A stretch of 64,000 bases of DNA from Patescibacteria group bacterium (lineage in GTDB: Bacteria; Patescibacteriota; JABMPQ01; JAQVVF01), in contig JAQVVF010000002.1 in assembly GCA_028699085.1 (NCBI GenBank), positions 68,557 through 132,556 on the forward strand, in the 5' to 3' direction. The notes under the pieces were generated by a model. The model was given only the letters and a program-made list of their open reading frames with translations. It was not told the DNA's origin and did no database searches. A program made the translations under genes and the position numbers. How positions within the stretch are numbered: position 1 is the stretch's first letter; each line of letters begins with the position of its first letter. Positions 2,584 through 55,651 of this stretch are shown here, in pieces.

Positions 2584-3087
2584 CTACATTGCTTTTCTTT
2601 GGAAGATCTTATTACCACCGCTTGTCTTTCTTCCAAAAAATCCCCGTTTCTGATCATTATTCTTGCCCCATTTCTTTTTTTTCTTTACTTTCTTTTCTTG
2701 TTTTTCTACAATTTTAGCTTCTTCTTTCTTAATTTTCTTAGCTTTTTTTCCTTTTACTTTTTCTTCCAATTCAATTTCAATATGGCTTGTTCTTCTTCTA
2801 ATAGTATAAGCTCTACCAAATGCTCGAGGACGAAATCTCTTCAATGTCGGTGCTTCATTAACAAAAACCTTAAAAACAAACAGATTATCTTTCTCCATAT
2901 TAAAGTTATGAACTGCGTTACTTGTAGCAGATAATAACAATTTCAATACTAAATCTGAAGATTTTTTATTCAAAAATCTCAATTGATTTTCTGCATCAAT
3001 CACATCTAAACCTCGAATTAGATCAACTACTAATTTCGCTTTTCTCGGAGCAATATGTAAATGTCTTAATGTTGCTTTAACTGACAT
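2584..3087 (-). CDS. rplV: 50S ribosomal protein L22 with a Lys-rich C-terminal extension
   Basis: L22 core (AKLVVDLIRG...SDLVLKLL) followed by a KKKK-rich tail of about 50 aa. Confidence 0.9.
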   Translation of the reverse strand: MSVKATLRHLHIAPRKAKLVVDLIRGLDVIDAENQLRFLNKKSSDLVLKLLLSATSNAVHNFNMEKDNLFVFKVFVNEAPTLKRFRPRAFGRAYTIRRRTSHIEIELEEKVKGKKAKKIKKEEAKIVEKQEKKVKKKKKWGKNNDQKRGFFGRKTSGGNKIFQRKAM

Positions 3088-3098
3088 ATATAGATTAA

Positions 3099-3446
3099 TT
3101 ATTCTTTAACTTCTTTTTTTTCACCTTCTTGCGCAGCTGCTAACTTTTGCGTCTCTGCTGCTTGAGCTGCTGCTGCTTCTTCCTTAGCAATTCTACCACC
3201 ATGAACTTCAAATCTTCTTGTCGGAGAAAACTCACCCAATCTATGTCCAACCATTTCTTCTGTTAAAAATACTGGAATGTGTTCTTTTCCATTATGTACT
3301 CCAATTGTAAAACCTACCATTTCTGGAAAAATAGTTGAGGATCTAGACCATGTTTTAATGATAGTCTTATCTCCTTGTCTCAATTTCTTTAATTTCTTTA
3401 AAAGTTTTGGATCACACCACAAACCTTTCTTTAAACTTCGTGACAT
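3099..3446 (-). CDS. rpsS: 30S ribosomal protein S19 with an Ala/Glu-rich C-terminal extension
   Basis: MSRSLKKG...[11 protein letters not shown] is S19; the tail reads [21 protein letters not shown]. Confidence 0.9.
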
Positions 3447-3473
3447 AATATATGTAACTTAGTATCTTATAAA

Positions 3474-4304
3474 TTATTTTCTTCTTCTAAGTATCAACTT
3501 ATCCGATAATCTATGAGGTTTTCTAGTCTTGACACCCATTGCTGGCTTGCCCCATCTTGTCTTTGGATGAATCATACCAATTGAGTTTCTTCCTTCACCA
3601 CCACCATGTGGGTGATCTTTTGGATTCATCGCTTTACCTCTTACTTCTGGTCTTCTGCCCATTTTTCTGCTTCTACCTGCGCTACCAATTATGATATTTC
3701 CATGATCAATATTGCTAATTCTACCAATCGTTGCACAAGAATCAATTAAGATATTTCTTACTTCACCAGAAGGAAATTTTAATTGAGCAAACTTGCCTTC
3801 AATTGCTAAAAGTTGAGCAGCTGCACCAGCACTTCTAACCATTTGTCCGCCTCTATTAGGCGCAAATTCAACTTCAGAAATAAAAGTACCCGTAGGAATA
3901 TATTTCAATGGATATCTATTTCCAACGGTTGCTTCAAGCTTTTTCAATGAACTCTTGACTTTATCACCAACCTTCAAATTTTCTTGAGCTAAAATATATG
4001 CCTTAGAACCATCAGTGTATTCAATCAATGCAACAAAAGCAGATCTATTTGGATCATATTCCAAGCTTTTTACTTCACCTTCAACATCATAATTTGATCT
4101 TCTAAAATCAATCATTCTATATTGTCTTTTGCTGCTTCCACCACGATGACGAATCGTAATTTTTCCTCGATGATTTCTACCACTATGTTTTTTTAATGCT
4201 ACAATCAAACCTTTTTCAGGTTCTTTTTTTGTTAACATTGAAAAATCAACGGTCGTAATATATCGTCTTGATGCTGTAACTGGTTTGTAGGTCTTAATTG
4301 GCAT
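3474..4304 (-). CDS. rplB: 50S ribosomal protein L2
   Basis: 276 aa with the KPTSPGRR-like and GGGEGR motifs typical of L2. Confidence 0.95.
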   Translation of the reverse strand: MPIKTYKPVTASRRYITTVDFSMLTKKEPEKGLIVALKKHSGRNHRGKITIRHRGGSSKRQYRMIDFRRSNYDVEGEVKSLEYDPNRSAFVALIEYTDGSKAYILAQENLKVGDKVKSSLKKLEATVGNRYPLKYIPTGTFISEVEFAPNRGGQMVRSAGAAAQLLAIEGKFAQLKFPSGEVRNILIDSCATIGRISNIDHGNIIIGSAGRSRKMGRRPEVRGKAMNPKDHPHGGGEGRNSIGMIHPKTRWGKPAMGVKTRKPHRLSDKLILRRRK

Positions 4305-4349
4305 TATCGAAAATTATTACTTTATAAATTTTGTAACTTTAAAACTCCG

Positions 4350-4754
4350 TTATACTCCTTCATAGATCTGGATGCTTTTTCCTGCTGGCAATGTTACAAT
4401 CGCTTTCTTTTTTGCGGAAGTCTGTCCAACTGTTTTTCCATATCTTCTTGATTTTCCAGATAAATTTATAACATTAACTTTTATTGGTTTAATTCCATAA
4501 ACTGCATAAATTGCTCTTGCAATCTCTTGCTTTGAAGCTGAGCTCTTTACTTGAAAAACATATTTATTAGAAATATTCAAATCTGCGCCTTTTTCTGAAA
4601 CTACCGGTTTTAACAAACATCTATGTGCTGCGCTATAAATATTTACAGCCTTTTTCGACTTTTCAGTATTTTTAGCAACTGAATCTTTCTTCTTAATAGA
4701 AGTTTCTTTTTTCTCATCTTTCTTTCCTTTTTTGAATACATCTAATAAAGCCAT
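4350..4754 (-). CDS. rplW: 50S ribosomal protein L23 with an N-terminal basic extension
   Basis: L23 core (LLKPVVSEKG...YVFQV...) preceded by a Lys-rich N-terminus. Confidence 0.85.
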   Translation of the reverse strand: MALLDVFKKGKKDEKKETSIKKKDSVAKNTEKSKKAVNIYSAAHRCLLKPVVSEKGADLNISNKYVFQVKSSASKQEIARAIYAVYGIKPIKVNVINLSGKSRRYGKTVGQTSAKKKAIVTLPAGKSIQIYEGV

Positions 4755-4770
4755 ATATTTAACTTGAAAA

Positions 4771-5382
4771 TTATTTAATCATTGCTAAAGATTTCTTATC
4801 TACAACCAATGTATCATATTTAACAACGTCATAAACGTTCAATAAATTTGATAATAATGGTTTTACACTTGAAACATTTCTGATAGACTTCATTGTCTTT
4901 TCATCATTTTCATTCAGCATTACCAAGGCGTTTTTTTCTACTTTAATATTCCTTAAAATCTTTACAAACTCTTTAGTTTTAATTGCTTCCATTTTTAATT
5001 CATCAAGAACAACTAATTTCTTTGAATTGTATTTATCAGAAAGCGCCATATGCAAAGCTTTTCTTTTTTCCTTCTTGTTTATTCTTTTTACATCATTCTT
5101 AGTCGCAACAGGACCAAATGTCTTACCTCCGCCCTTCCATAATGGAGAACGAATAGAACCAACACGAGCACGTCCTGTACCTTTTTGCTTCCATGGCTTA
5201 ATACCGCCACCTCTTACCTCAGCTCTATCTTTTGATTTGGAAGTAACTTCTTTTTTGCTCAATTGGGCAACAACTGCACGATGTACAACAGAATTTTTAA
5301 CTTCAACACCAAAAATATTTGGATCTAAATCCACTGTACCAACTTTCTTTCCTTCTTTGTTCAATATATCAACTTTTAACAT
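4771..5382 (-). CDS. rplD: 50S ribosomal protein L4
   Basis: 203 aa with the RGGG.KPW.QKGTGRAR motif of L4. Confidence 0.95.
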   Translation of the reverse strand: MLKVDILNKEGKKVGTVDLDPNIFGVEVKNSVVHRAVVAQLSKKEVTSKSKDRAEVRGGGIKPWKQKGTGRARVGSIRSPLWKGGGKTFGPVATKNDVKRINKKEKRKALHMALSDKYNSKKLVVLDELKMEAIKTKEFVKILRNIKVEKNALVMLNENDEKTMKSIRNVSSVKPLLSNLLNVYDVVKYDTLVVDKKSLAMIK

Positions 5383-5400
5383 ATGTAGCTAAAATAATCT

Positions 5401-6012
5401 TTAATTTCCACGAATTCTTAACCATGTTCCAACTTTGCCAGGCAAAGCTCCTTTTACGGCTAATACGTTTTCATTCACATTTATATCTAAAACTGATGAA
5501 TTCTTTGAAGTTACATTTTCTCCACCCATTCTTCCACCCATTCTTCTACCTTTCATAACGTGTTGAGGATGACCGGAGTTAATAGAACCAGGAGCTCTCC
5601 AATCGTGCTTATGACCATGCGAATGTGGTGCTCCATGAAAACCATGCCTCTTCATAACTCCAGCAAAGCCCTTACCTTTTGAAACGCCTGAAATAGACAA
5701 AGAATCACCAATTTTGAACTGTGAAATATCAATTTTATCACCAATTTTAAATGGAGTCAAGTCTTCAATTCTGAACTCTGCGAAACTACTTAAATTTTCT
5801 TTGATACCCGCCTTATTTAACGATCCTTTTACTCTACCATCGCCCTTTTTAACAATTTTATAGCCAACTTGAATAGCAGAATAGCCATCCTTTTTAGCAT
5901 CCAAAAGCCTAGTAACAAAACAATTACCAATTCTAATTAAGGTAACAGCTTCAAGTTTACCTTCTTTGTACATTCTACTCATTCCAATTTTTTCGCCAAA
6001 AATGAATTTCAT
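5401..6012 (-). CDS. rplC: 50S ribosomal protein L3
   Basis: MKFIFGEKIGMSRMY... and the Gly-rich loop of L3. Confidence 0.95.
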   Translation of the reverse strand: MKFIFGEKIGMSRMYKEGKLEAVTLIRIGNCFVTRLLDAKKDGYSAIQVGYKIVKKGDGRVKGSLNKAGIKENLSSFAEFRIEDLTPFKIGDKIDISQFKIGDSLSISGVSKGKGFAGVMKRHGFHGAPHSHGHKHDWRAPGSINSGHPQHVMKGRRMGGRMGGENVTSKNSSVLDINVNENVLAVKGALPGKVGTWLRIRGN

Positions 6013-21771: not shown

Positions 21772-21888
21772 GAGCGAGGCTCGAATCTATGGGTGAAAAC
21801 ACCCTAATTTCTAATTACTCTAAGTATAGCAAAAAATTAATCTTTTGTCAATAAATAAAAAATCTAGTTGAATAAATTAACGTTAAGA

Positions 21889-23579: not shown

Positions 23580-23717
23580 GATTTAAAACTTTCTTTATAT
23601 TTTTATATAAAAAGACACTCTGTCCAGACTGTCTTTTTAGAAAAACTTGATTATTTGATTATTATGATATAATAACAAAAATTAAATAATATGTCAAGTT
23701 TGCAACTTTTTATCACT

Positions 23718-23788
23718 TCGGGGACCCGGGAATCGAACCCGGTCTACATCCACCCCATGGACGCGTACTACCGGTATACTAGTCCCCG
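23718..23788 (-). tRNA. tRNA-Pro (anticodon GGG)
   Basis: Folded by hand: acceptor CGGGGAC/GTCCCCG, D-arm GTAT-ACCGGTA-GTAC, anticodon stem CGTCC/GGATG with loop AUGGGGU (U33, GGG, G37), T-arm CCGGG-TTCGATT-CCCGG, discriminator A. No CCA is encoded. Confidence 0.85.
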
Positions 23789-23901
23789 ACTTAAACATTA
23801 TTATATGCTTTAACAACCGCAAAATCAACAAAAAAAAAGAAGCTATATATAACTTCTTACATAAAAAAACAAAAAATATCATAGATCAAAATTAGAATTT
23901 T

Positions 23902-24579
23902 CTATTCGATTACTTCACATCTTATTGTCGGCTTGTTGCTCCATACGTACACCGCAGTAAGTGTAATATCAGCAACTGTCTCACTACCAACTGTTTGATA
24001 AAAACTAGTTTGGTACACATTGAAACGCAAAGAATCACTTCCTATAGACCTTTTGCTTCCATCATCTTCAATAATAAAACATTCGGAATCAACAAATTTA
24101 CTTTCTTTCCCATTGAGCGGAGCTTCTACTTTGACCTCATAACCACCAATCAATAAATTAGAAAAAGAATATGTCCCATCAAAATCTGGCGTATCAATTC
24201 CTTCATATTGGCAAAGAGGATTAGATCTACAAGCATCTATTAAATCGCTGTTATTGCCCTTATAGCTATACCGTATTCTCAGTTCCGTTTCAAAATCATT
24301 ATATTGCCCATTACATTCATGTTTATAAGTGTCTTCAACAAATACGCATTGTATTTTTCTACCTTCTTTCATGGCAGAATAAGGAATAACGCCTCCTCCC
24401 GGAAACCTGATATATATACTACCAGACACGCTTCCAAACTGATCTTCTGACAAAGTAATGGTTTGATTTTGACTCTGATCTTGTTCACAAGACAACAAAA
24501 CGCTTATCAAAACAAATATCACGACACTGAAAAATCGAGTCTTGTTCTCTAACATTCTCCCTCCTCTTTTGGGTTTCAA
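23902..24579 (-). CDS. Putative lipoprotein
   Basis: Signal peptide with lipobox ...VLLSC|EQD, and a Cys-containing mature domain. A consensus-like promoter (TTGACA-16-TAATGT) lies upstream. Confidence 0.55.
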   Translation of the reverse strand: MKPKRGGRMLENKTRFFSVVIFVLISVLLSCEQDQSQNQTITLSEDQFGSVSGSIYIRFPGGGVIPYSAMKEGRKIQCVFVEDTYKHECNGQYNDFETELRIRYSYKGNNSDLIDACRSNPLCQYEGIDTPDFDGTYSFSNLLIGGYEVKVEAPLNGKESKFVDSECFIIEDDGSKRSIGSDSLRFNVYQTSFYQTVGSETVADITLTAVYVWSNKPTIRCEVIE

Positions 24580-24661
24580 CTATCACGAAATAATTTTCTA
24601 AAGATCTTTCTTTACATAAATTAATTTTCTTTAAACATTAATTTACATTACAACACTTTTC

Positions 24662-24678
24662 TATTTTGTCAATAAAAA
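24662..24678. repeat. Left copy of a 17-bp perfect direct repeat (tattttgtcaataaaaa) flanking the GC-rich islet
   Basis: Identical 17-mer at 24662-24678 and 25850-25866. On the minus strand it reads TTTTTATTGACAAAATA, an A-tract followed by a perfect -35 TTGACA. Confidence 0.7.
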
Positions 24679-24891
24679 AAGCCACATTGCTGTAGCTCTA
24701 CAAAAAGAACAAATTAACCACGAAGTTTCAAAAAATTCAATCTCTTATCTTTCGTTTTTCTCTGAATCGGAACTGTCAAAAATTTTTTCTTACAATGCTC
24801 AAAAGGAATACCTTCGCCTCGTCTTGTTTGATTTAACATAAAAACAGAATCTACCGACAAATGGTTGCTGAACAAAGTAATGAGCAATGCT

Positions 24892-25308
24892 TCAAAAAGT
24901 CTGCTTCCCATCTTGATCTCCTGTATCATCGAATATCCCTGAGAATCTGACCAAATCAGTCCTTAAATCACCAGGTCTCTTTCTTTCATCCTGCAATAAA
25001 AAATGGAAACCTTTGCCTTCAGATTCAACAGGATTACTATCATGTGGCAAAATCACCAAGTTCCAATTCTGAATACAGGTAGTATCTTGAAAAGGATTGA
25101 AATTCCTCAAGATCTCACAATCACATTTGATTTTCAAAGCCATGAAAAAAATGGTTACCCTTCCGAAATGAATTCTGCCAATTCCATTTTTTTGCATTTC
25201 ATTATATTCAGCGATCACTTCTCTGGTCTTTTCCAAACTATGAATTCCACCTTCACAACAACCAGCACGTCGCGCATTCAATTCTTGGTAAAAAGTTCCT
25301 ATCTGCAT
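24892..25308 (-). CDS. Cys-motif protein B (CC-x45-CDC); paralog of the adjacent gene
   Basis: MQIGTFYQELNARRAGCCEGGIHS...IFFMALKIKCDCEILRNFN. It aligns with gene A (CC..HS ... I.F....CDC...LN). Local GC is noticeably higher than the rest of the window. Confidence 0.5.
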   Translation of the reverse strand: MQIGTFYQELNARRAGCCEGGIHSLEKTREVIAEYNEMQKNGIGRIHFGRVTIFFMALKIKCDCEILRNFNPFQDTTCIQNWNLVILPHDSNPVESEGKGFHFLLQDERKRPGDLRTDLVRFSGIFDDTGDQDGKQTF

Positions 25309-25309
25309 T

Positions 25310-25699
25310 TCACACCCCCTCCGATCCGACACAGCACTGCGGCATCATCGGATCGCATACGCCACGCACGTAATCTAAATTGATTACACCCAAATCACCA
25401 ATCGAAATTCCCTTTCGCACTCCCTTAATAGACAAATCCCACTGCTCAGACAGCCACCCATTGCCCATATTCAAACATTCCACCTGGCAATCGCATCTCG
25501 CTCCAATTTCCATCAAAAATTCAATCGCCCAATCAGCACGAATTGAAAACTCCAAAGACAGCTCCTGCACTCTGCTAAAAGAATGAACATCATTGCTGCA
25601 ACATTTACGGCCTTCGCGCATCAACTTTACAAAACCAATCAAATCCAAACTGCCTTTTTCAATAGAAAAACCAGAATCGTAAATAGAGCTCATTGGACT
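25310..25699 (-). CDS. Cys-motif protein A (CC-x35-CDC, plus a C-terminal CC)
   Basis: Strong SD GGAGGAAAAGGAA precedes ATG(MSPMSS...). Motifs ...GRKCCSNDVHS...AIEFLMEIGARCDCQVECLN...QCCVGSEGV. Paralog of gene B. Confidence 0.5.
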   Translation of the reverse strand, partial: SPMSSIYDSGFSIEKGSLDLIGFVKLMREGRKCCSNDVHSFSRVQELSLEFSIRADWAIEFLMEIGARCDCQVECLNMGNGWLSEQWDLSIKGVRKGISIGDLGVINLDYVRGVCDPMMPQCCVGSEGV

Positions 25700-25798
25700 C
25701 ATTTCCTTTTCCTCCATCACCAGCATAACTTTTGCTGGTTGCCTGCCAAAATTGGCAGGTCTTTTTTACCTTTTGGGCGTCAAATTTAAGAACAAAAA

Positions 25799-25817
25799 AT
25801 TGACATCAAAATGTCAA
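25799..25817. promoter_or_regulatory. Perfect palindrome TTGACAT-caaa-ATGTCAA (candidate operator) just downstream of the islet promoter
   Basis: 7-bp inverted arms separated by 4 bp. It lies between the right 17-bp repeat (-35 TTGACA, -10 TATATT on the minus strand) and gene A. Confidence 0.4.
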
Positions 25818-25849
25818 AAGAACATATCTACTAATATATACTATTTTAA

Positions 25850-25866
25850 TATTTTGTCAATAAAAA
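25850..25866. repeat. Right copy of the 17-bp direct repeat, likely the -35 of the islet promoter on the minus strand
   Basis: See the left copy. Downstream on the minus strand: TTGACA-16-TATATT. Confidence 0.7.
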
Positions 25867-25906
25867 CAAATCACAAATCATGAACTGTATGTAATCTTAT
25901 AATATC

Positions 25907-26977
25907 TTAATTTATAGCTATATTCTCAATAATTCTTACAATATTTACCAAATCAGCTATTTTAATTTTCTCTTTTACACTATGACATTTTTCCCGACCA
26001 TAACCAATACTCAAAGACTCAATTCCTTTTTCACAAAAAACATTTGCATCTGTCGCTCCCATTCTCTTTTCATATGCTACTTTCAATCCCGACTTTCTAA
26101 TACCCTTTGAAATCATTTCGACTAAAGCGCTGTCTTTTTTATAATTATATCCAACAACTTCCTGCATTTTTTTCAATTCATATTTAGCATTGAATTTTTT
26201 ACAGCTATTTTTTAATTTTTTTTCTAATATTCCAATTTGTTTTTTAAAAATATTTTTATCAATCGCCCGAATCTCACCAACAAAATTTATTTCATCACAG
26301 ATTACATTTCCGCCTCTGCCACCAGAAACAACACCAATATTTGAAACACAATATTTGCTAATCCTGCCCGGCTTCCACATATTAATAAATTCTGCAAGAC
26401 AATTAATCGAATTCACGCCTTCTTCTGGCGCGCGCGAGTGCGCCATTTTTCCAATTACCTTACCCGAAAAACTCTGAATATATGGAGCGCCACAAGTTAT
26501 AAAGCCACAACGCGATGAACTATCAATAATTACTGCTCTCTTTGATTTCAAATTTTCGAAAACTAAATTCCTTGCTCCAACGCATCCAATTTCCTCCTGC
26601 ACTGTAAAAATCAATTCCAATGGCCGTACATTTTTTTGTTTTCGTAAATTTTTAACTGCCAACAAAATACCTGCAACACCGGCTTTATCATCAGCTCCCA
26701 AAATTGTCCTCCCATCGCTTCTGATAACACTATTTTTAATTATTGGCTTAATATTTTTTCCCGGCGAAACTGTATCCATATGAGCCGACAAAATTATTGG
26801 CTCGCCTCTGCCTTTTGTTTTTGCAATCACATTGCCGATTTTATCTTGCTTTGCTTTAATTTTAATTTTTTTTAAATAATCAATAATAAAATCAGCAACC
26901 TTTTTTTCATTGCCAGTTTCACTATTAATTTTTACTAGTTTCAAAAAAACTCTTACAACTTCAAGATCTCTCTTCAT
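25907..26977 (-). CDS. M20/M42-family metallopeptidase (peptidase T / FrvX-like)
   Basis: SAHMDTV, GADDKAG and the E-E pair (TVQEEIG), typical of the M20/M42 dinuclear zinc peptidases. Confidence 0.7.
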   Translation of the reverse strand: MKRDLEVVRVFLKLVKINSETGNEKKVADFIIDYLKKIKIKAKQDKIGNVIAKTKGRGEPIILSAHMDTVSPGKNIKPIIKNSVIRSDGRTILGADDKAGVAGILLAVKNLRKQKNVRPLELIFTVQEEIGCVGARNLVFENLKSKRAVIIDSSSRCGFITCGAPYIQSFSGKVIGKMAHSRAPEEGVNSINCLAEFINMWKPGRISKYCVSNIGVVSGGRGGNVICDEINFVGEIRAIDKNIFKKQIGILEKKLKNSCKKFNAKYELKKMQEVVGYNYKKDSALVEMISKGIRKSGLKVAYEKRMGATDANVFCEKGIESLSIGYGREKCHSVKEKIKIADLVNIVRIIENIAIN

Positions 26978-27045: not shown

Positions 27046-28767
27046 TTAATCCATAAAAGAACAACTTGTCATTGCCGAATTAGATCGGCCATGAACAATA
27101 TAACCATCAGAGATTGGAATGCAAGTCACTGTATTTCCGCCAAAACTAGAGCTATTTGCATCATTATCAAGCCAATACCAAACACAAATTCTCGTCCGCA
27201 CATTTTCTTTGTCCGCCTTTTTATTAGCTGGATCAAAAATCATCATTTCATCAATTACCATCTCGCAATATTCTTGAGCAATAACAGTTCGTTGTTTTGC
27301 CATTTCCGCAAATGTTTTCACTAGCTTTCTCCATGTACTCCGCATCATCCCCTTACTAATTGCCACAGCATGTCCGCCAGCAGCTTTGTTATCACCACCC
27401 GACAACTTCAGCACTACTTCCGCATCCAATCTTTTTCTAGCCTGTCTAATTTTTACAAACCAATTTTCTCGACCAGACATCACAAAAATTTCTCGCCCAA
27501 CATTTTTAAACATTGTTACCATCTTTGTGGATTCAGGATCAGCCATTTTCCATCCTCTCGTTGACTTTGCCAAAGCCATCAAAGACTTCAAATCTCCCAA
27601 TCCTAAAAATATCTTTTTTCCTAGTTCCAAATCTTTTTTATCTCCCAACTCACGAAAACCAATCAGTTGCAAATTATTATCAAAAGCAAACCAATATTCC
27701 CGAATCTGCATATCTGAAAGTTCCTGCATTGATTCATTAGAATATTCAACGCCCTTCCAAATAAAATTGTTTCCTTTCCAAACAACTGTATAGGCAAAAA
27801 AATTTTTCAATTCAACAAAACCATCGCTTCCCAAAAATTTGATCCATTCTTCATTCAAACGCTCATCAAATAACCATGCCATCAATTCTTTATAATCCAA
27901 AAAAGTCAGCAGATTTGGATGCAGTAAAACTTTGCCATCAAAATAGGCATCAATAATCTTCTTTTCAATATCTGCTGCAAATACTGCCATCCTGTTTTTC
28001 TGTAAATCATTTTTGTCAATTTCAGAATATTCTTTGAAGACTCTTTCCACCAAATCAAGTTTTTTGCCTTTCAAATAAACTCCATCATCTTTGACTTCTG
28101 CCAGAAAAGATATCCCAAACAAAAAAGTCAAACCAAATTCTTTTCCGTATTCTTCAAACAGCTTTGTCAAAGCCTGCTGTTCCGGACCATAACCATCGCG
28201 CCAAGGAGTCAAAAGAATTCCCACATTTCCGCCATTTGGCAACAAATCATGGATAGCTTCGACATACTTTTTGGCAATTGGCTCAAAAAATTTTTTGTCA
28301 GGGAAAAAATTACGCGAAATAATATCAATTACTGCTCCATAACCAGAACCAGTTGCACCCAAAGTAAATTCATTAATCTTCAATCCTTCAGCAGTTCTGA
28401 TTGCATCAATCCGAATTCTTTTTGCCAAAATTACGTTTTTTCTTTCCAATTCTTTTTTCCAAATCTCAATCTGCAATTTTGACCGACCGCAACACAAATC
28501 CTGCCACAGCCAAGAATATTCGCCATTGCTTGATCTCCTCGCCAAATCAACACAACCTCTCAAAAATCTTGGAATCAGATCTTCAAGCCTTTTCAAAGTT
28601 GCAATCTCTCCACAAGTCAAAGCATAAGTTTCCAGCCCAATTCTTGCCGTATAATTTTTTGGCATAGTCCCAATTTTTCCCCAATAAAGACCTTGTTCCA
28701 AATATTCCTTTTCCATTTGCCTACCCAAATCATCATAATCAAACAGCTGTCTGCTCGTTCCCTGCAT
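27046..28767 (-). CDS. Large conserved hypothetical protein, possibly a ligase-like enzyme (family not assigned)
   Basis: 573 aa, soluble, with no recognisable canonical motif. It sits next to the M20 peptidase and near the ATP-grasp ligase. Confidence 0.3.
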   Translation of the reverse strand: MQGTSRQLFDYDDLGRQMEKEYLEQGLYWGKIGTMPKNYTARIGLETYALTCGEIATLKRLEDLIPRFLRGCVDLARRSSNGEYSWLWQDLCCGRSKLQIEIWKKELERKNVILAKRIRIDAIRTAEGLKINEFTLGATGSGYGAVIDIISRNFFPDKKFFEPIAKKYVEAIHDLLPNGGNVGILLTPWRDGYGPEQQALTKLFEEYGKEFGLTFLFGISFLAEVKDDGVYLKGKKLDLVERVFKEYSEIDKNDLQKNRMAVFAADIEKKIIDAYFDGKVLLHPNLLTFLDYKELMAWLFDERLNEEWIKFLGSDGFVELKNFFAYTVVWKGNNFIWKGVEYSNESMQELSDMQIREYWFAFDNNLQLIGFRELGDKKDLELGKKIFLGLGDLKSLMALAKSTRGWKMADPESTKMVTMFKNVGREIFVMSGRENWFVKIRQARKRLDAEVVLKLSGGDNKAAGGHAVAISKGMMRSTWRKLVKTFAEMAKQRTVIAQEYCEMVIDEMMIFDPANKKADKENVRTRICVWYWLDNDANSSSFGGNTVTCIPISDGYIVHGRSNSAMTSCSFMD

Positions 28768-28817
28768 TTTTTTCTCTCCTGCCTACATTTTTGTAGGCCC
28801 TGGTTGTAAAGAACAAT

Positions 28818-28841
28818 CAAAAACCGGCTTTTAGAGCCGGT
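28818..28841 (-). terminator. Intrinsic terminator on the minus strand
   Basis: Stem accggct / agccggt; T5 follows on the minus strand. Confidence 0.55.
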
Positions 28842-29036
28842 CTTTGCACAATATAATTTCTTTAAAAATTATCTTATATAATACAAAAATCGACTCATAA
28901 AAATGAAATGATAATGCCATGAATAAAATTTAAATTGTTGACTGATACTTAACATATATATACTTAATTGCTTATATTCGTACGATTAGTTGCAGTTGCA
29001 GTTGCATTCGCAATATTAATAAGATGAAAACAAAAA

Positions 29037-29065
29037 CTGGCCCAGATATTGAGCCAGCTTTTTAA
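29037..29065. terminator. Bidirectional hairpin with T-runs on both sides inside a 443-bp intergenic region
   Basis: ctggc-ccagatattga-gccag, followed by cttttt on plus and gttttt on minus. The stem is weak (5 bp). Confidence 0.35.
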
Positions 29066-29159
29066 AAAAATTATTTAAAATTTATACAATAAAAAGTCGA
29101 CTCAATAATCTTGAATGCCAGTAATGTGTATAAAATTGTCGGCTAATATTTTTCATAAT

Positions 29160-29195
29160 AATATATTATATAACACCTACATCTTTTGTCAATAT
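29160..29195 (-). promoter_or_regulatory. Consensus-like sigma70 promoter pointing into the intergenic region
   Basis: Minus strand reads TTGACA-aaagatgtaggtgtta-TATAAT (16-bp spacer). No annotated CDS lies downstream before the hairpin or terminator. Confidence 0.45.
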
Positions 29196-29210
29196 AACTT
29201 ATCAACAGGC

Positions 29211-29711: not shown

Positions 29712-31016
29712 TTAACCTTTAATTTTGTCCATTAATTTTCTTAACTTTTTCAAAATCCTGAACTGTCCATCTTCCATAAAAAAATCTTTCAAATTTATTT
29801 CTTTATTCAATCCTCTTTTTATTCTCTTTCTCCAAGAAGACTGCTCATGTGATTCTATTGTTTCAAGATACAGATTTAATAATTTCTGAGTTTGATTTTG
29901 GATCGAAAATAATTTTGCTAGTTCTAAAGACTTTGTCGACATTTTAGCACGTAAATCTGGATTTCGCAACAACTCTAAAACTTTTTCAGAATATAAATCT
30001 GAATCATCATTTGGAATTTCAAAACCATTCTCTAAATCCGCCACAACTGAAGTCAAACCTTCATCCTTCAACATTACAATTGGCAAACCAGAAGCTGCTG
30101 CTTCCAACAAAACCAAACTTTGAGTATCAGTCTTCGATGCAAAAACAAAAAATTCTGCATCTGCAAAACATTTTGGCACTTCATCTCGATTCGCAAATCC
30201 GCCAAAAATAACTCTGTCTTGCAATTTCATTTTTTCAAATTCATTTTTTAAATCATCTAAACTTGGTCCAGAACCGATTATCGCCATCACGCAATTTTCA
30301 TCTTCTTTAGCTACTTTTTCAAACATCTCCGCTAAAAACATCGGATTCTTGGGAAGAGCCACTCTGCCCAAATACATTATTATTTTCTTGTCAGCTGGAA
30401 TATTAAACTTTGATCTTAAATATTTTTTTTCAACATTACTAAATTTATCCAACTCAATTCCAGTCTGAATAACTGAAATATCATTTTTTACTCCATATTC
30501 TTGCAACATTTTTTTAACTTTTTCCGAAGGCGAAATTAAAGCATCGCATCTTTGGCTATAAAAAACTGAGATATCTTTTGCCAAGCTCATCACTGCTTTA
30601 TCCATCCTATACCAATTTTTAAATAATGAATGACCTGTATATTTTTCATAAAGCGTATGATAAGTATGGACAACTGGAATATTATAAAATAATGCTACAA
30701 TACTTGCATACATTCCCATATAAAATGGCGTATGAGAATGAACTATGTCAATTTTAAATTTATAAAAATCATGAAAAATCGGAGGTAGATTTGGAAGCGT
30801 CATTGTGAATTCCGAAAATACATCTTGCTTCAATGATTCAATACGATAAACTCTTGGACCATCTTTTGGAACATTTCCATTTTCATCTTTTAATAATGGC
30901 GCAAAAATAAAAACCTGATGACCTTGTTTTTCCAGTTCATCTTTGAATAAATCTATTGAGTTCGCAACACCAGAGACATAAGGATGATAGGTGTCTGTAA
31001 AAAATGCTATATTCAC
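29712..31016 (-). CDS. Glycosyltransferase family 4 (GT-B), with a C-terminal extension
   Basis: EAAASGLPIV and the E-x7-E region; 434 aa; GTG start. Confidence 0.75.
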   Translation of the reverse strand: MNIAFFTDTYHPYVSGVANSIDLFKDELEKQGHQVFIFAPLLKDENGNVPKDGPRVYRIESLKQDVFSEFTMTLPNLPPIFHDFYKFKIDIVHSHTPFYMGMYASIVALFYNIPVVHTYHTLYEKYTGHSLFKNWYRMDKAVMSLAKDISVFYSQRCDALISPSEKVKKMLQEYGVKNDISVIQTGIELDKFSNVEKKYLRSKFNIPADKKIIMYLGRVALPKNPMFLAEMFEKVAKEDENCVMAIIGSGPSLDDLKNEFEKMKLQDRVIFGGFANRDEVPKCFADAEFFVFASKTDTQSLVLLEAAASGLPIVMLKDEGLTSVVADLENGFEIPNDDSDLYSEKVLELLRNPDLRAKMSTKSLELAKLFSIQNQTQKLLNLYLETIESHEQSSWRKRIKRGLNKEINLKDFFMEDGQFRILKKLRKLMDKIKG

Positions 31017-31106
31017 GTTAAAAAAGTTAAAAGTTAAAAGTTAAAAGTTAAAAGTTAAAAGTTAAAAGTTAAAAGTTAAAATTAAAAAGTTAAAAGTTAA
31101 AAGTTA
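31017..31106. repeat. Tandem heptanucleotide repeat (gttaaaa), about 12 copies
   Basis: Eight perfect consecutive copies at 31026-31081, then degenerate copies. It is followed at 31130-31170 by a T-rich ttttact-type repeat that is partly complementary. Confidence 0.9.
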
Positions 31107-47999: not shown

Positions 48000-48061
48000 A
48001 AAAAATGATTTAAAATAAATTATCTAACAGTATAATTTATTTTTGGCTTTTTGTCAACAGT

Positions 48062-55570: not shown

Positions 55571-55651
55571 GCCGAAGTGGCGAAATGGCAGACGCGCACG
55601 ACTCAAAATCGTGTGAGTTTACTCATGAGGGTTCGACTCCCTCCTTCGGCA
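55571..55651 (+). tRNA. tRNA-Leu (anticodon CAA), class II with a long variable arm
   Basis: Acceptor GCCGAAG/CTTCGGC, 3-bp D-stem, anticodon stem CACGA/TCGTG with loop CUCAAAA, variable arm TGAG-TTTA-CTCA, T-arm GAGGG-TTCGACT-CCCTC. Confidence 0.85.

Follow-up and report, generated by a model that had tools for sequence, protein, structure and literature searches.

A candidate orphan operon of a narrow Saccharibacteria group, preceded by a near-invariant promoter and leader

Within a 64-kb stretch from a Patescibacteria (Saccharibacteria) metagenome-assembled genome (the window, meaning the whole stretch analysed), the segment at positions 24662-25866 differs in base composition from its surroundings and is framed by two identical 17-bp repeats. 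An earlier note, made from the sequence alone, had read this segment as a small, horizontally acquired cassette of two genes, and the question raised by the locus is whether the cassette landed recently at this site or has long resided there, and what its products might do. Comparison with relatives (labelled L001-L003, L005-L008 and L088-L090) indicates that the cassette is a lineage-restricted orphan operon of a narrow Saccharibacteria group rather than a recent insertion. The best overall explanation, which we hold at a probability of about 0.5, is that of one orphan transcription unit whose A and B proteins would hold zinc, whose A and C proteins would form an antidote-like complex, and whose promoter would be repressed at an adjacent inverted repeat.

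A predicted transcription unit of three genes

On the minus strand, the genes follow one another in the order M20 peptidase (25907-26977), A, B, C, lipoprotein (start at 24555 or 24579, end at 23902) and tRNA-Pro (23789-23717); the features of the cassette itself are collected in Table 1. GenBank labels all three cassette products as hypothetical proteins (locus tags PHN19_01625 for A, PHN19_01620 for B and PHN19_01615 for C) and gives A in a version of 135 amino acids (aa; MDD3887452.1). The earlier note had counted two paralogous genes; the paralogy stands, but not the number, as the small gene C had been overlooked. The GGAGGA Shine-Dalgarno sequence that it assigned to the first gene is indeed present ahead of A.

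The ATG of B begins 1 nt past the stop codon of A in the window's clade, L008 and L090 (17 nt in L007), and every A-B junction has a purine-rich Shine-Dalgarno sequence ahead of B. At the next junction, the stop codon of B overlaps the called ATG of C (ATGA) in close relatives, and the two genes are separated by 11 nt in L008. The window's own gene B carries a 1-nt deletion at 24939-24944 (TCAG-GGAT versus TC[A/C]GAGGAT in five close relatives) that swaps its final 4 residues for 15 others and brings the overlap with the start of C to 20 nt. This frameshift may be genuine or may stem from an error of assembly, and the tail that it affects belongs to the low-confidence part of the AlphaFold2 model of B.

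The lack of recognised domains, the frameshifted 3' end of B and an atypical codon usage (z-scores of −4.1, −2.3 and −2.2 for A, B and C, respectively) might be taken to mean that these open reading frames (ORFs) are spurious and the region non-coding or decaying. This interpretation is refuted by profile-level paralogy of A and B (see below) and by ratios of nonsynonymous to synonymous substitution rates (dN/dS) well under 1, and we regard it as practically untenable. Comparisons between strains and species put dN/dS of A at 0.07-0.49 and that of B at 0.08-0.51; gene C has a value of 0.26 in comparison with L008, its close-strain comparisons holding too few changes to inform. In each gene, the annotated frame also has a better codon score than the two other frames, lineages with saturated synonymous divergence (dS) have kept the gene lengths, the Shine-Dalgarno sequences and the spacing of the genes, and residues 1-98 of B give a confident structural model. 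A, B and C are real genes.

As judged from its sequence, the segment makes up a single transcription unit, with a near-consensus sigma-70 promoter, a leader of ~125 nt, the three genes and an intrinsic terminator. The terminator hairpin and its T-run are kept in L008 and L088, and in L007 too with a different stem sequence. Similarly, A, C, the promoter-leader and the terminator were found wherever those regions are readable, and B is missing in one lineage (L088). Since C is present wherever the region after A can be read, we infer that A and C form the core pair and that B is a dispensable duplicate of A.

Flanking repeats, inheritance and base composition

If the cassette were a recently acquired mobile islet inserted between the M20 and lipoprotein genes, the 17-bp repeats would be its target-site duplications. 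An exact 17-nt direct repeat does lie at each end, at 24662 and 25850 as the earlier note had reported, with a 2-mismatch copy at 21841. Nonetheless, both copies resemble functional promoter elements, an option that the note itself had suggested in place of target-site duplication and that the sequences bear out: on the minus strand they read TTGACA-16-TATATT (matching 11 of 12 consensus positions) for the cassette, and TTGACA-16-TAATGT for the lipoprotein gene, whose −35 and −10 boxes lie at 24667-24672 and 24645-24650. The combination of T-tract and −35 box, ATTGACAAAA, is found at four promoter-like sites (21851, 24672, 25860 and 29192), a fifth such site at 48057 reads GTTGACAAAA, and TTGACAAAA heads 5 of the 14 TTGACA-N16-18-TAnnnT sites in the window. 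Given that ~10 unrelated pairs of exact repeats of at least 17 nt occur elsewhere in the same AT-rich window, the 17-mer is by itself statistically unremarkable.

The relatives lead to the same conclusion. In L008, L088 and L090, the upstream site reads CTTTTCTTGACAAAATATT and shares only TTGACAAAATA with the other site. In L008 just 11 nt are common to the two sites, which means that the 17-nt identity arose inside the window's clade, the opposite of what is expected from a decaying target-site duplication. The repeats exist, but the edges of the conserved block do not coincide with them. Across all lineages, similarity sets in at AAATTAAGATA, ~55 nt ahead of the −35 box, and stops at …GGCTTTTTTTATTG, within the downstream 17-mer; L088 and L007 then differ, their similarity to the window ending inside copy 1 after …TTTTTATTG. 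The two 17-mers are the T-tract plus −35 box of two promoters, those of the cassette and of the next gene, and not insertion scars.

The inheritance of the cassette argues further against a recent arrival. A search of GTDB species representatives with the M20 protein, where sampling of this group is thin, brought up one other species, an uncultured Candidatus Saccharibacteria metagenome-assembled genome (L008), with an M20 protein 74% identical to that of the window (75% by tblastn); the next-best matches, at 39% or less, belong to other phyla. L008 has the same gene order as the window, namely a 573-aa gene, M20, A, B, C, lipoprotein, ATP-grasp and DEAD helicase genes. The dS values that separate the two are 1.1-1.8 in M20, A, B and the 573-aa gene; C stands at ~1.0 and the lipoprotein gene at 0.6. 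The occurrence of the cassette at the same M20-lipoprotein site despite dS above 1 implies that it predates a deep split, which contradicts a recent horizontal acquisition. The cassette is also present in six of six close contigs (L001-L003, L005, L006 and the window). Comparison of presence and absence in related genomes, which the note had suggested as a check, returned the cassette in all those compared; no empty site and no presence/absence variation were seen in the six close contigs and L008, within the limits of this thin sampling.

Three further lineages also speak against recent acquisition by this particular genome, as they all carry the cassette and show an excess of GC at third codon positions (GC3) too. 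In L088, a TrpR/YerC-like gene and a 128-aa gene precede A, C and a tRNA-like sequence, without B; in L090, a TrpR-like gene and again the 128-aa gene lie ahead of A and a truncated B (B'); and on the 736-bp contig L007, the end of A (A') is followed by B and C. That the cassette neighbours in L088 and L090 differ from those in the window and L008 would favour mobility, as would the atypical GC and GC3 values described below. No recombinase is present, however, in the segment, as the earlier note had stated and as is confirmed by the ORF list and by Pfam scans covering the segment and its two neighbours, nor were terminal inverted repeats found. A genomic islet and the cassette share atypical GC and codon usage and a narrow taxonomic distribution; they differ in that the cassette has no integrase and no target-site duplication, does not lie beside a tRNA 3' end, and occupies the same position in a species with saturated dS. 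In sum, the tests for a mobile islet (recombinase, target-site duplication, empty site) failed and composition alone is atypical, so that this origin is largely refuted and must be deemed very improbable.

The compositional jump itself is genuine. The GC content of 24662-25866 is 37.7% versus a window mean of 31.6%, and the most GC-rich stretches of 1205, 400 and 200 bp in the window start in or beside the segment (24681, 25221 and 25311, respectively). GC3 reaches 0.47 in A (z +6.8), 0.33 in B (z +2.9) and 0.37 in C when read as 71 aa (z +4.0; 0.32 when read as 65 aa), as compared with 0.22 ± 0.037 and a maximum of 0.318 among 54 other ORFs of the window. High expression does not explain this excess, as GC3 of EF-Tu is 0.16. 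The contrast with the flanks is softer than at first impression, because the 573-aa gene (0.32) and the lipoprotein gene (0.28) are also near the top of the background. The GC-rich stretch quoted by the note corresponds to a hairpin at the 3' end of A that folds in the window, L001 and L005 and has no equivalent in L008, L090 and L007, and is thus specific to the window's clade. GC3 of A is high in the other lineages as well (0.44, 0.33, 0.39 and 0.46), from which we infer that the excess is old, either a residue of ancient transfer from a GC-richer donor or a property kept by selection.

Ancient transfer into the ancestor of the Saccharibacteria clade, with incomplete amelioration and a later A-to-B duplication, is a tentative alternative for the origin of the cassette, compatible with the single-unit explanation; an actinobacterial host is a possible donor. 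It would fit the GC3 excess in every lineage examined, the absence of the family from all other sampled taxa (1.84 billion cluster representatives) and the distant link of A to DUF2695, a family seen in cyclodipeptide synthase gene clusters (PMC5767969). Yet a neutral GC3 signal should mostly have decayed at dS above 1, a purely neutral residue being hard to sustain over such divergence; the searches returned no donor homolog; the DUF2695 similarity stays below threshold; and GC3 is also at the high end in the neighbouring 573-aa and lipoprotein genes.

Table 1. Positions of the cassette features in the window (from the sequence; hairpins, promoter and terminator are predictions)
Feature	Positions	Strand	Description
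17-mer copy 2	25850-25866	−	TTTTTATTGACAAAATA; T-rich upstream tract plus putative −35 box of the cassette promoter
Cassette promoter	25833-25860	−	TTGACA, 16-nt spacer, TATATT; 11/12 consensus positions
Inverted repeat TTGACAT-N4-ATGTCAA, then U/T run	25800-25817		Possible operator or 5' stem-loop, spanning ~+10 to +27 of the presumed transcript
Leader hairpin CCTGCCAA/TTGGCAGG	25742-25759	−	Relatives have CCGCCA…TGGCGG
Second leader hairpin ACCAGCA/TGCTGGT	25719-25739	−	Predicted in the window; lineage-specific
Shine-Dalgarno sequence of gene A, GGAGGA	25710-25715	−	9 nt ahead of the ATG of A
Gene A	25310-25702	−	130 aa, acidic (pI 4.7), predicted all-alpha, DUF2695-like Cys/His protein; ATG at 25702
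GC-rich hairpin	25321-25356	−	3' end of gene A, just ahead of the Shine-Dalgarno sequence of B; stretch quoted in the earlier note
Gene B	24892-25308	−	138 aa, paralog of A; 3' end shifted by a 1-nt deletion in this genome
Gene C	24714-24911	−	65 aa, very basic (pI 10.7), C-terminal FLK(L/I)RG invariant; GenBank MDD3887450.1
Intrinsic terminator hairpin of the cassette	24678-24699	−	T-run runs on into 17-mer copy 1
17-mer copy 1	24662-24678	−	Terminator T-tract plus putative −35 box of the lipoprotein promoter

Control region, protein family and possible function

The cassette promoter is nearly invariant in four lineages, with TATACT as −10 box outside the window's clade. Indeed, the whole stretch from −35 to ~+45 is almost unchanged in the window, L008, L088 and L090, reading TTGACAAAATATT…TATA(C/T)T…GATATGTTCTTTGACAT-N3/4-ATGTCATTTTTTT(A/G)TTCT, unlike the A proteins, which are only 30-40% identical between lineages. 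The palindrome that the earlier note had placed between promoter and first gene is there, perfect and with a single occurrence in the window. Its counterpart in L008 and L090 is TGACAT-N3-ATGTCA, in L088 it has one mismatch, and U7 follows the stem in all lineages. Such a private, conserved inverted repeat just past the promoter is compatible with dedicated regulation. It could be an operator, as its half-site sequence is conserved without covariation and is private to the locus; it could equally be a 5' stem-loop with a U-tract, its loop being 4 nt in the window's clade and 3 nt elsewhere. The change in spacing and the L088 mutation fit an RNA hairpin no less well than they fit a dimeric operator.

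An action of the repeat in RNA, as a 5' stem-loop and U-tract serving as stabiliser or weak attenuator, is a tentative alternative and would extend to pairing of the U-rich tract with the long purine-rich Shine-Dalgarno region, gating translation of A. The variable loop behind a kept stem and the U7 tract in all lineages are in its favour, RNAalifold predicts that the U-tract pairs to the GGAGGGAAAGG…AUG region, one of the pairs being compensatory, and the leaders of the window and L008 fold better than shuffled sequence (z −2.7 and −2.2). The corresponding values for L088 and L090 are only −0.7 and −0.8, though, and the stem is short and AT-rich, its half-site is conserved without covariation and broken by the change in L088. 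Moreover, minimum-energy folds differ by lineage, the Shine-Dalgarno sequence being free in the window's own fold, and Rfam gave no match at its gathering threshold, nor any with E ≤ 1 when 24500-26000 was searched.

Further down the leader, the CCGCCA/TGGCGG hairpin is the sole structure predicted consistently across all four lineages; compared with this form, the window's version would have arisen by a compensated insertion of one base per arm. The position of the second hairpin is taken by another one in L090 and is free of hairpins in L008 and L088. The hairpin at 25741-25760 was also considered as a plus-strand terminator, an option discarded because L008 and L088 do not keep the T-run; a leader peptide (MFFDI, then stop) was discarded as well, as it is not conserved in relatives.

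The paralogy of A and B noted earlier from shared motifs is settled by profile comparison. BLASTP aligns the two with 24% identity over 50 aa (E 5e-5), and hhalign of the A-subfamily and B-subfamily profiles yields 97.1% probability (E 5.5e-11, 83 columns). As for the motifs, both CC-x4-HS and CDC are present in the window, but the former is not strictly conserved, since A of L008 has a single Cys and a C-x8-H spacing. Invariant in ten members are an F, an L, one Cys of the 'CC', a His 4-8 residues on, an F and Cys-Asp-Cys; A-type members have an additional invariant Cys four residues past CDC (CDCQxxC). Four candidate ligands (C, H, C-D-C) are thus conserved in 10 of 10 sequences, which makes zinc binding plausible, and most likely this Cys/His/Cys-x-Cys set holds one structural zinc ion. 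In the AlphaFold2 model of B, built on a 9-sequence alignment, residues 1-98 form a five-helix domain (predicted local distance difference test, pLDDT, 80-90) followed by a disordered C-terminal tail, and in the predicted secondary structure the CC…H motif falls in the loop that joins helices 1 and 2, whereas helix 4 begins with CDC. The invariant ligands and the lack of a detectable signal peptide in A and B recall a Cys3His structural zinc domain; C-x4-8-H…C-D-C on an all-alpha scaffold, however, matches no zinc-finger class found, and Foldseek searches of PDB and BFVD with the B model returned nothing below E = 1. The most divergent family member, P0007 (105 aa, 8 Cys), is encoded within the stretch 55-735 of L089, solitary and without a C gene; the ORF after it is partial, unrelated and vaguely toxin-like by eye, with no database match.

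The family is exceedingly small. A profile search of 1.84 billion cluster representatives matched 6 clusters. Used as word-indexed queries on 5.8 billion proteins, A, B and a 9-sequence profile brought back the same clusters only, all near relatives. NCBIfam, PADLOC and PHROGs gave no match for the cassette proteins, and neither did PDB sequences searched with A and with the family profile. In other collections, tblastn of phage and plasmid records yielded noise only, a protein-pattern scan of IMG/VR no match, a DNA scan of IMG/VR one match that was judged to be chance, and a metagenome DNA scan with a 16-base leader motif, among the matches listed, only chance matches and the known L090 contig. 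A genome-contig scan with A was empty because A diverges too fast; the M20 query then found L008.

The closest approach to a described family is to DUF2695 (PF10905), with a profile of 53 positions and a gathering cut-off of 25 bits. The scores of window A (14 bits, E 0.056), L008 A (17.4 bits) and P0005 (19 bits) all fall below the cut-off, and we consequently name A and B 'DUF2695-like'. Four of five A-type members match the same PF10905 region (best E 2e-4), which spans positions 11-51 where coordinates are listed; B-type members have no PF10905 match. The likeness consists of 35-40 residues, a helix-loop region ending in …G.RCDCQV, in proteins that are small and uncharacterised in both cases. 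The A/B family differs in having its own N-terminal F..L…C(C)-x4-8-H motif and a fixed partner gene, C. DUF2695 is uncharacterised and, in the literature found, merely listed, in the context of gene clusters of cyclodipeptide synthases, which are tRNA-dependent natural-product enzymes (PMC5767969). A gene annotated as DUF2695 is carried by the K. pneumoniae ECL8 plasmid.

C is conserved in L001, L008, L007 and L088; it has a moderately hydrophobic N-terminal helix, and its C-terminal FLK(L/I)RG is invariant among the members compared. Taken with a RimK-like ATP-grasp gene and the M20 peptidase gene nearby in the window, this C-terminus might suggest a ubiquitin- or Pup-like tag that ends in glycine and is conjugated by the nearby ATP-grasp-type ligases, with A and B as zinc-binding accessory factors. 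A 'GEGIP' stretch of C, which on inspection resembles KEGIP of ubiquitin, points in the same direction. Nevertheless, C has no match to a ubiquitin family in Pfam, no E1-like gene occurs in any context examined, and the M20/ATP-grasp neighbourhood is not kept in L088 and L090. The single-sequence AlphaFold2 model of C, at a low confidence (pLDDT 50), shows one helix and an otherwise unstructured chain with no beta-grasp. We hold this tag hypothesis to be scarcely credible.

In its layout, the cassette resembles a type II toxin-antitoxin or toxin-immunity locus, by analogy only. The genes are small, adjacent and apparently co-transcribed, with a 1-nt A-B gap, the ATGA overlap of B and C and an A-C bicistron in L088; the first product is acidic and the last basic; an inverted repeat lies at the promoter; fast-evolving proteins stand behind a conserved control region; and the putative antidote gene is duplicated. 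Across lineages, the isoelectric point (pI) is 4.7-6.3 for A and 9.7-11.2 for C. Differences are that neither a toxin nor an antitoxin fold is recognised in the cassette, that PADLOC and Pfam give no match, that no DNA-binding domain was identified, and that close strains sampled show no presence/absence variation. Pfam, NCBIfam, PADLOC and PHROGs detect no toxin or antitoxin domain in A, B or C.

The antidote-effector anatomy is suggested by an acidic, Cys/His-rich A ahead of a small basic C, by a strong promoter with a private inverted repeat, and by proteins that evolve much faster than their control region. Under the single-unit explanation favoured here, the invariant Cys…His…Cys-Asp-Cys would hold one zinc ion, acidic A (and its duplicate B) would form a complex with basic C much as antitoxins or immunity proteins do with their partners, and a repressor at the inverted repeat, possibly the A/B-C complex itself, would hold down the strong promoter. 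Several observations weigh against this explanation: the pI of B varies between lineages from 5.8 to 9.9; the half-site spacing of the putative operator changes from N4 to N3 and its L088 half-site is mutated; Pfam and PADLOC detect no DNA-binding or defence domain in A, B or C; the model of C is too poor to use; and the family is so small that shared descent alone could explain the conserved gene order. The more specific proposal that A and C, with B optional, constitute a new conflict module found only in Saccharibacteria, in which zinc-binding A neutralises C and represses its own promoter at TGACAT/ATGTCA, is speculative and, in our estimate, unlikely.

What the locus provides for annotation is a correction, with no fresh islet and with bounding repeats that read as promoter boxes. 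The nearly invariant promoter and leader in front of fast-diverging proteins, the persistent GC3 excess, the acidic-basic pair and the extreme rarity of the family make the cassette a candidate lineage-specific conflict or regulatory module. If A and B are truly relatives of DUF2695, a function found here would extend to that uncharacterised family. If they also belong to a conflict module, the locus would offer a first way into the function of the DUF2695 superfamily and of a lineage-specific system in an episymbiotic phylum.

Other features of the neighbourhood

A functional link of the cassette to the M20 peptidase, the 573-aa protein or the ATP-grasp gene was dismissed, as this neighbourhood is lacking in L088 and L090. 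The 573-aa gene (27046-28767, minus strand) lies on the other side of M20 from the cassette, and its product is 62% identical in L008, also beside M20. The 573-aa protein has no Pfam match at E ≤ 1 and nothing credible in NCBIfam, PADLOC, PHROGs and PDB sequences; by eye only, it resembles circularly permuted ATP-grasp or GspS-like amide ligases. Relative to L005, dS is 0.46 for the lipoprotein gene (23902-24555), 0.59 for the 573-aa gene and 0.005 for the intervening M20 gene, a mosaic that points to recombination or diversifying exchange of the two outer genes.

A genuine integrative element, which contrasts with the cassette, is found in L001 (from 11977 onward) and L002, integrated directly past the 3' end of tRNA-Pro(GGG) and longer than 8 kb. 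It carries a 610-aa large serine recombinase, a primase-like zinc-ribbon protein and an N6/N4 methyltransferase. Position 23717 of the window is the empty site for this element, the sequences parting right after …GGGTCCCCGA. The tRNA-Pro(GGG) itself (23717-23789) was detected by ARAGORN and not by the Rfam tRNA model at its gathering threshold; both detected the tRNA-Leu at 55571.

L005 also contains a 2.6-kb insertion (2846-5483) between NDK and a 571-aa gene that is absent from the window (28768-29210) and from L001. It encodes a 337-aa protein, a TrpR/YerC-like helix-turn-helix protein and a 129-aa protein ending in HWSH; TrpR-like and 128-aa genes stand directly upstream of the cassette in L088 and L090.

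Within the M20 coding region, the plus strand at 26426-26445 carries, antisense to the gene, a strong GC-rich hairpin with a T-run after it (TGGCGCGCGCGAGTGCGCCA TTTTT), which resembles a terminator on the non-coding strand. Farther away, an (AAAAGTT) × 12 tandem repeat (plus strand, 31022-31106) is placed directly upstream of the GTG of a GT4 glycosyltransferase gene (29712-31016, minus strand). Its copy number is 3+8 units in the window and 2+2 in L001 and L002, and the repeat is degenerate in L005; this variation may reflect slipped-strand phase variation of a surface-glycan gene.

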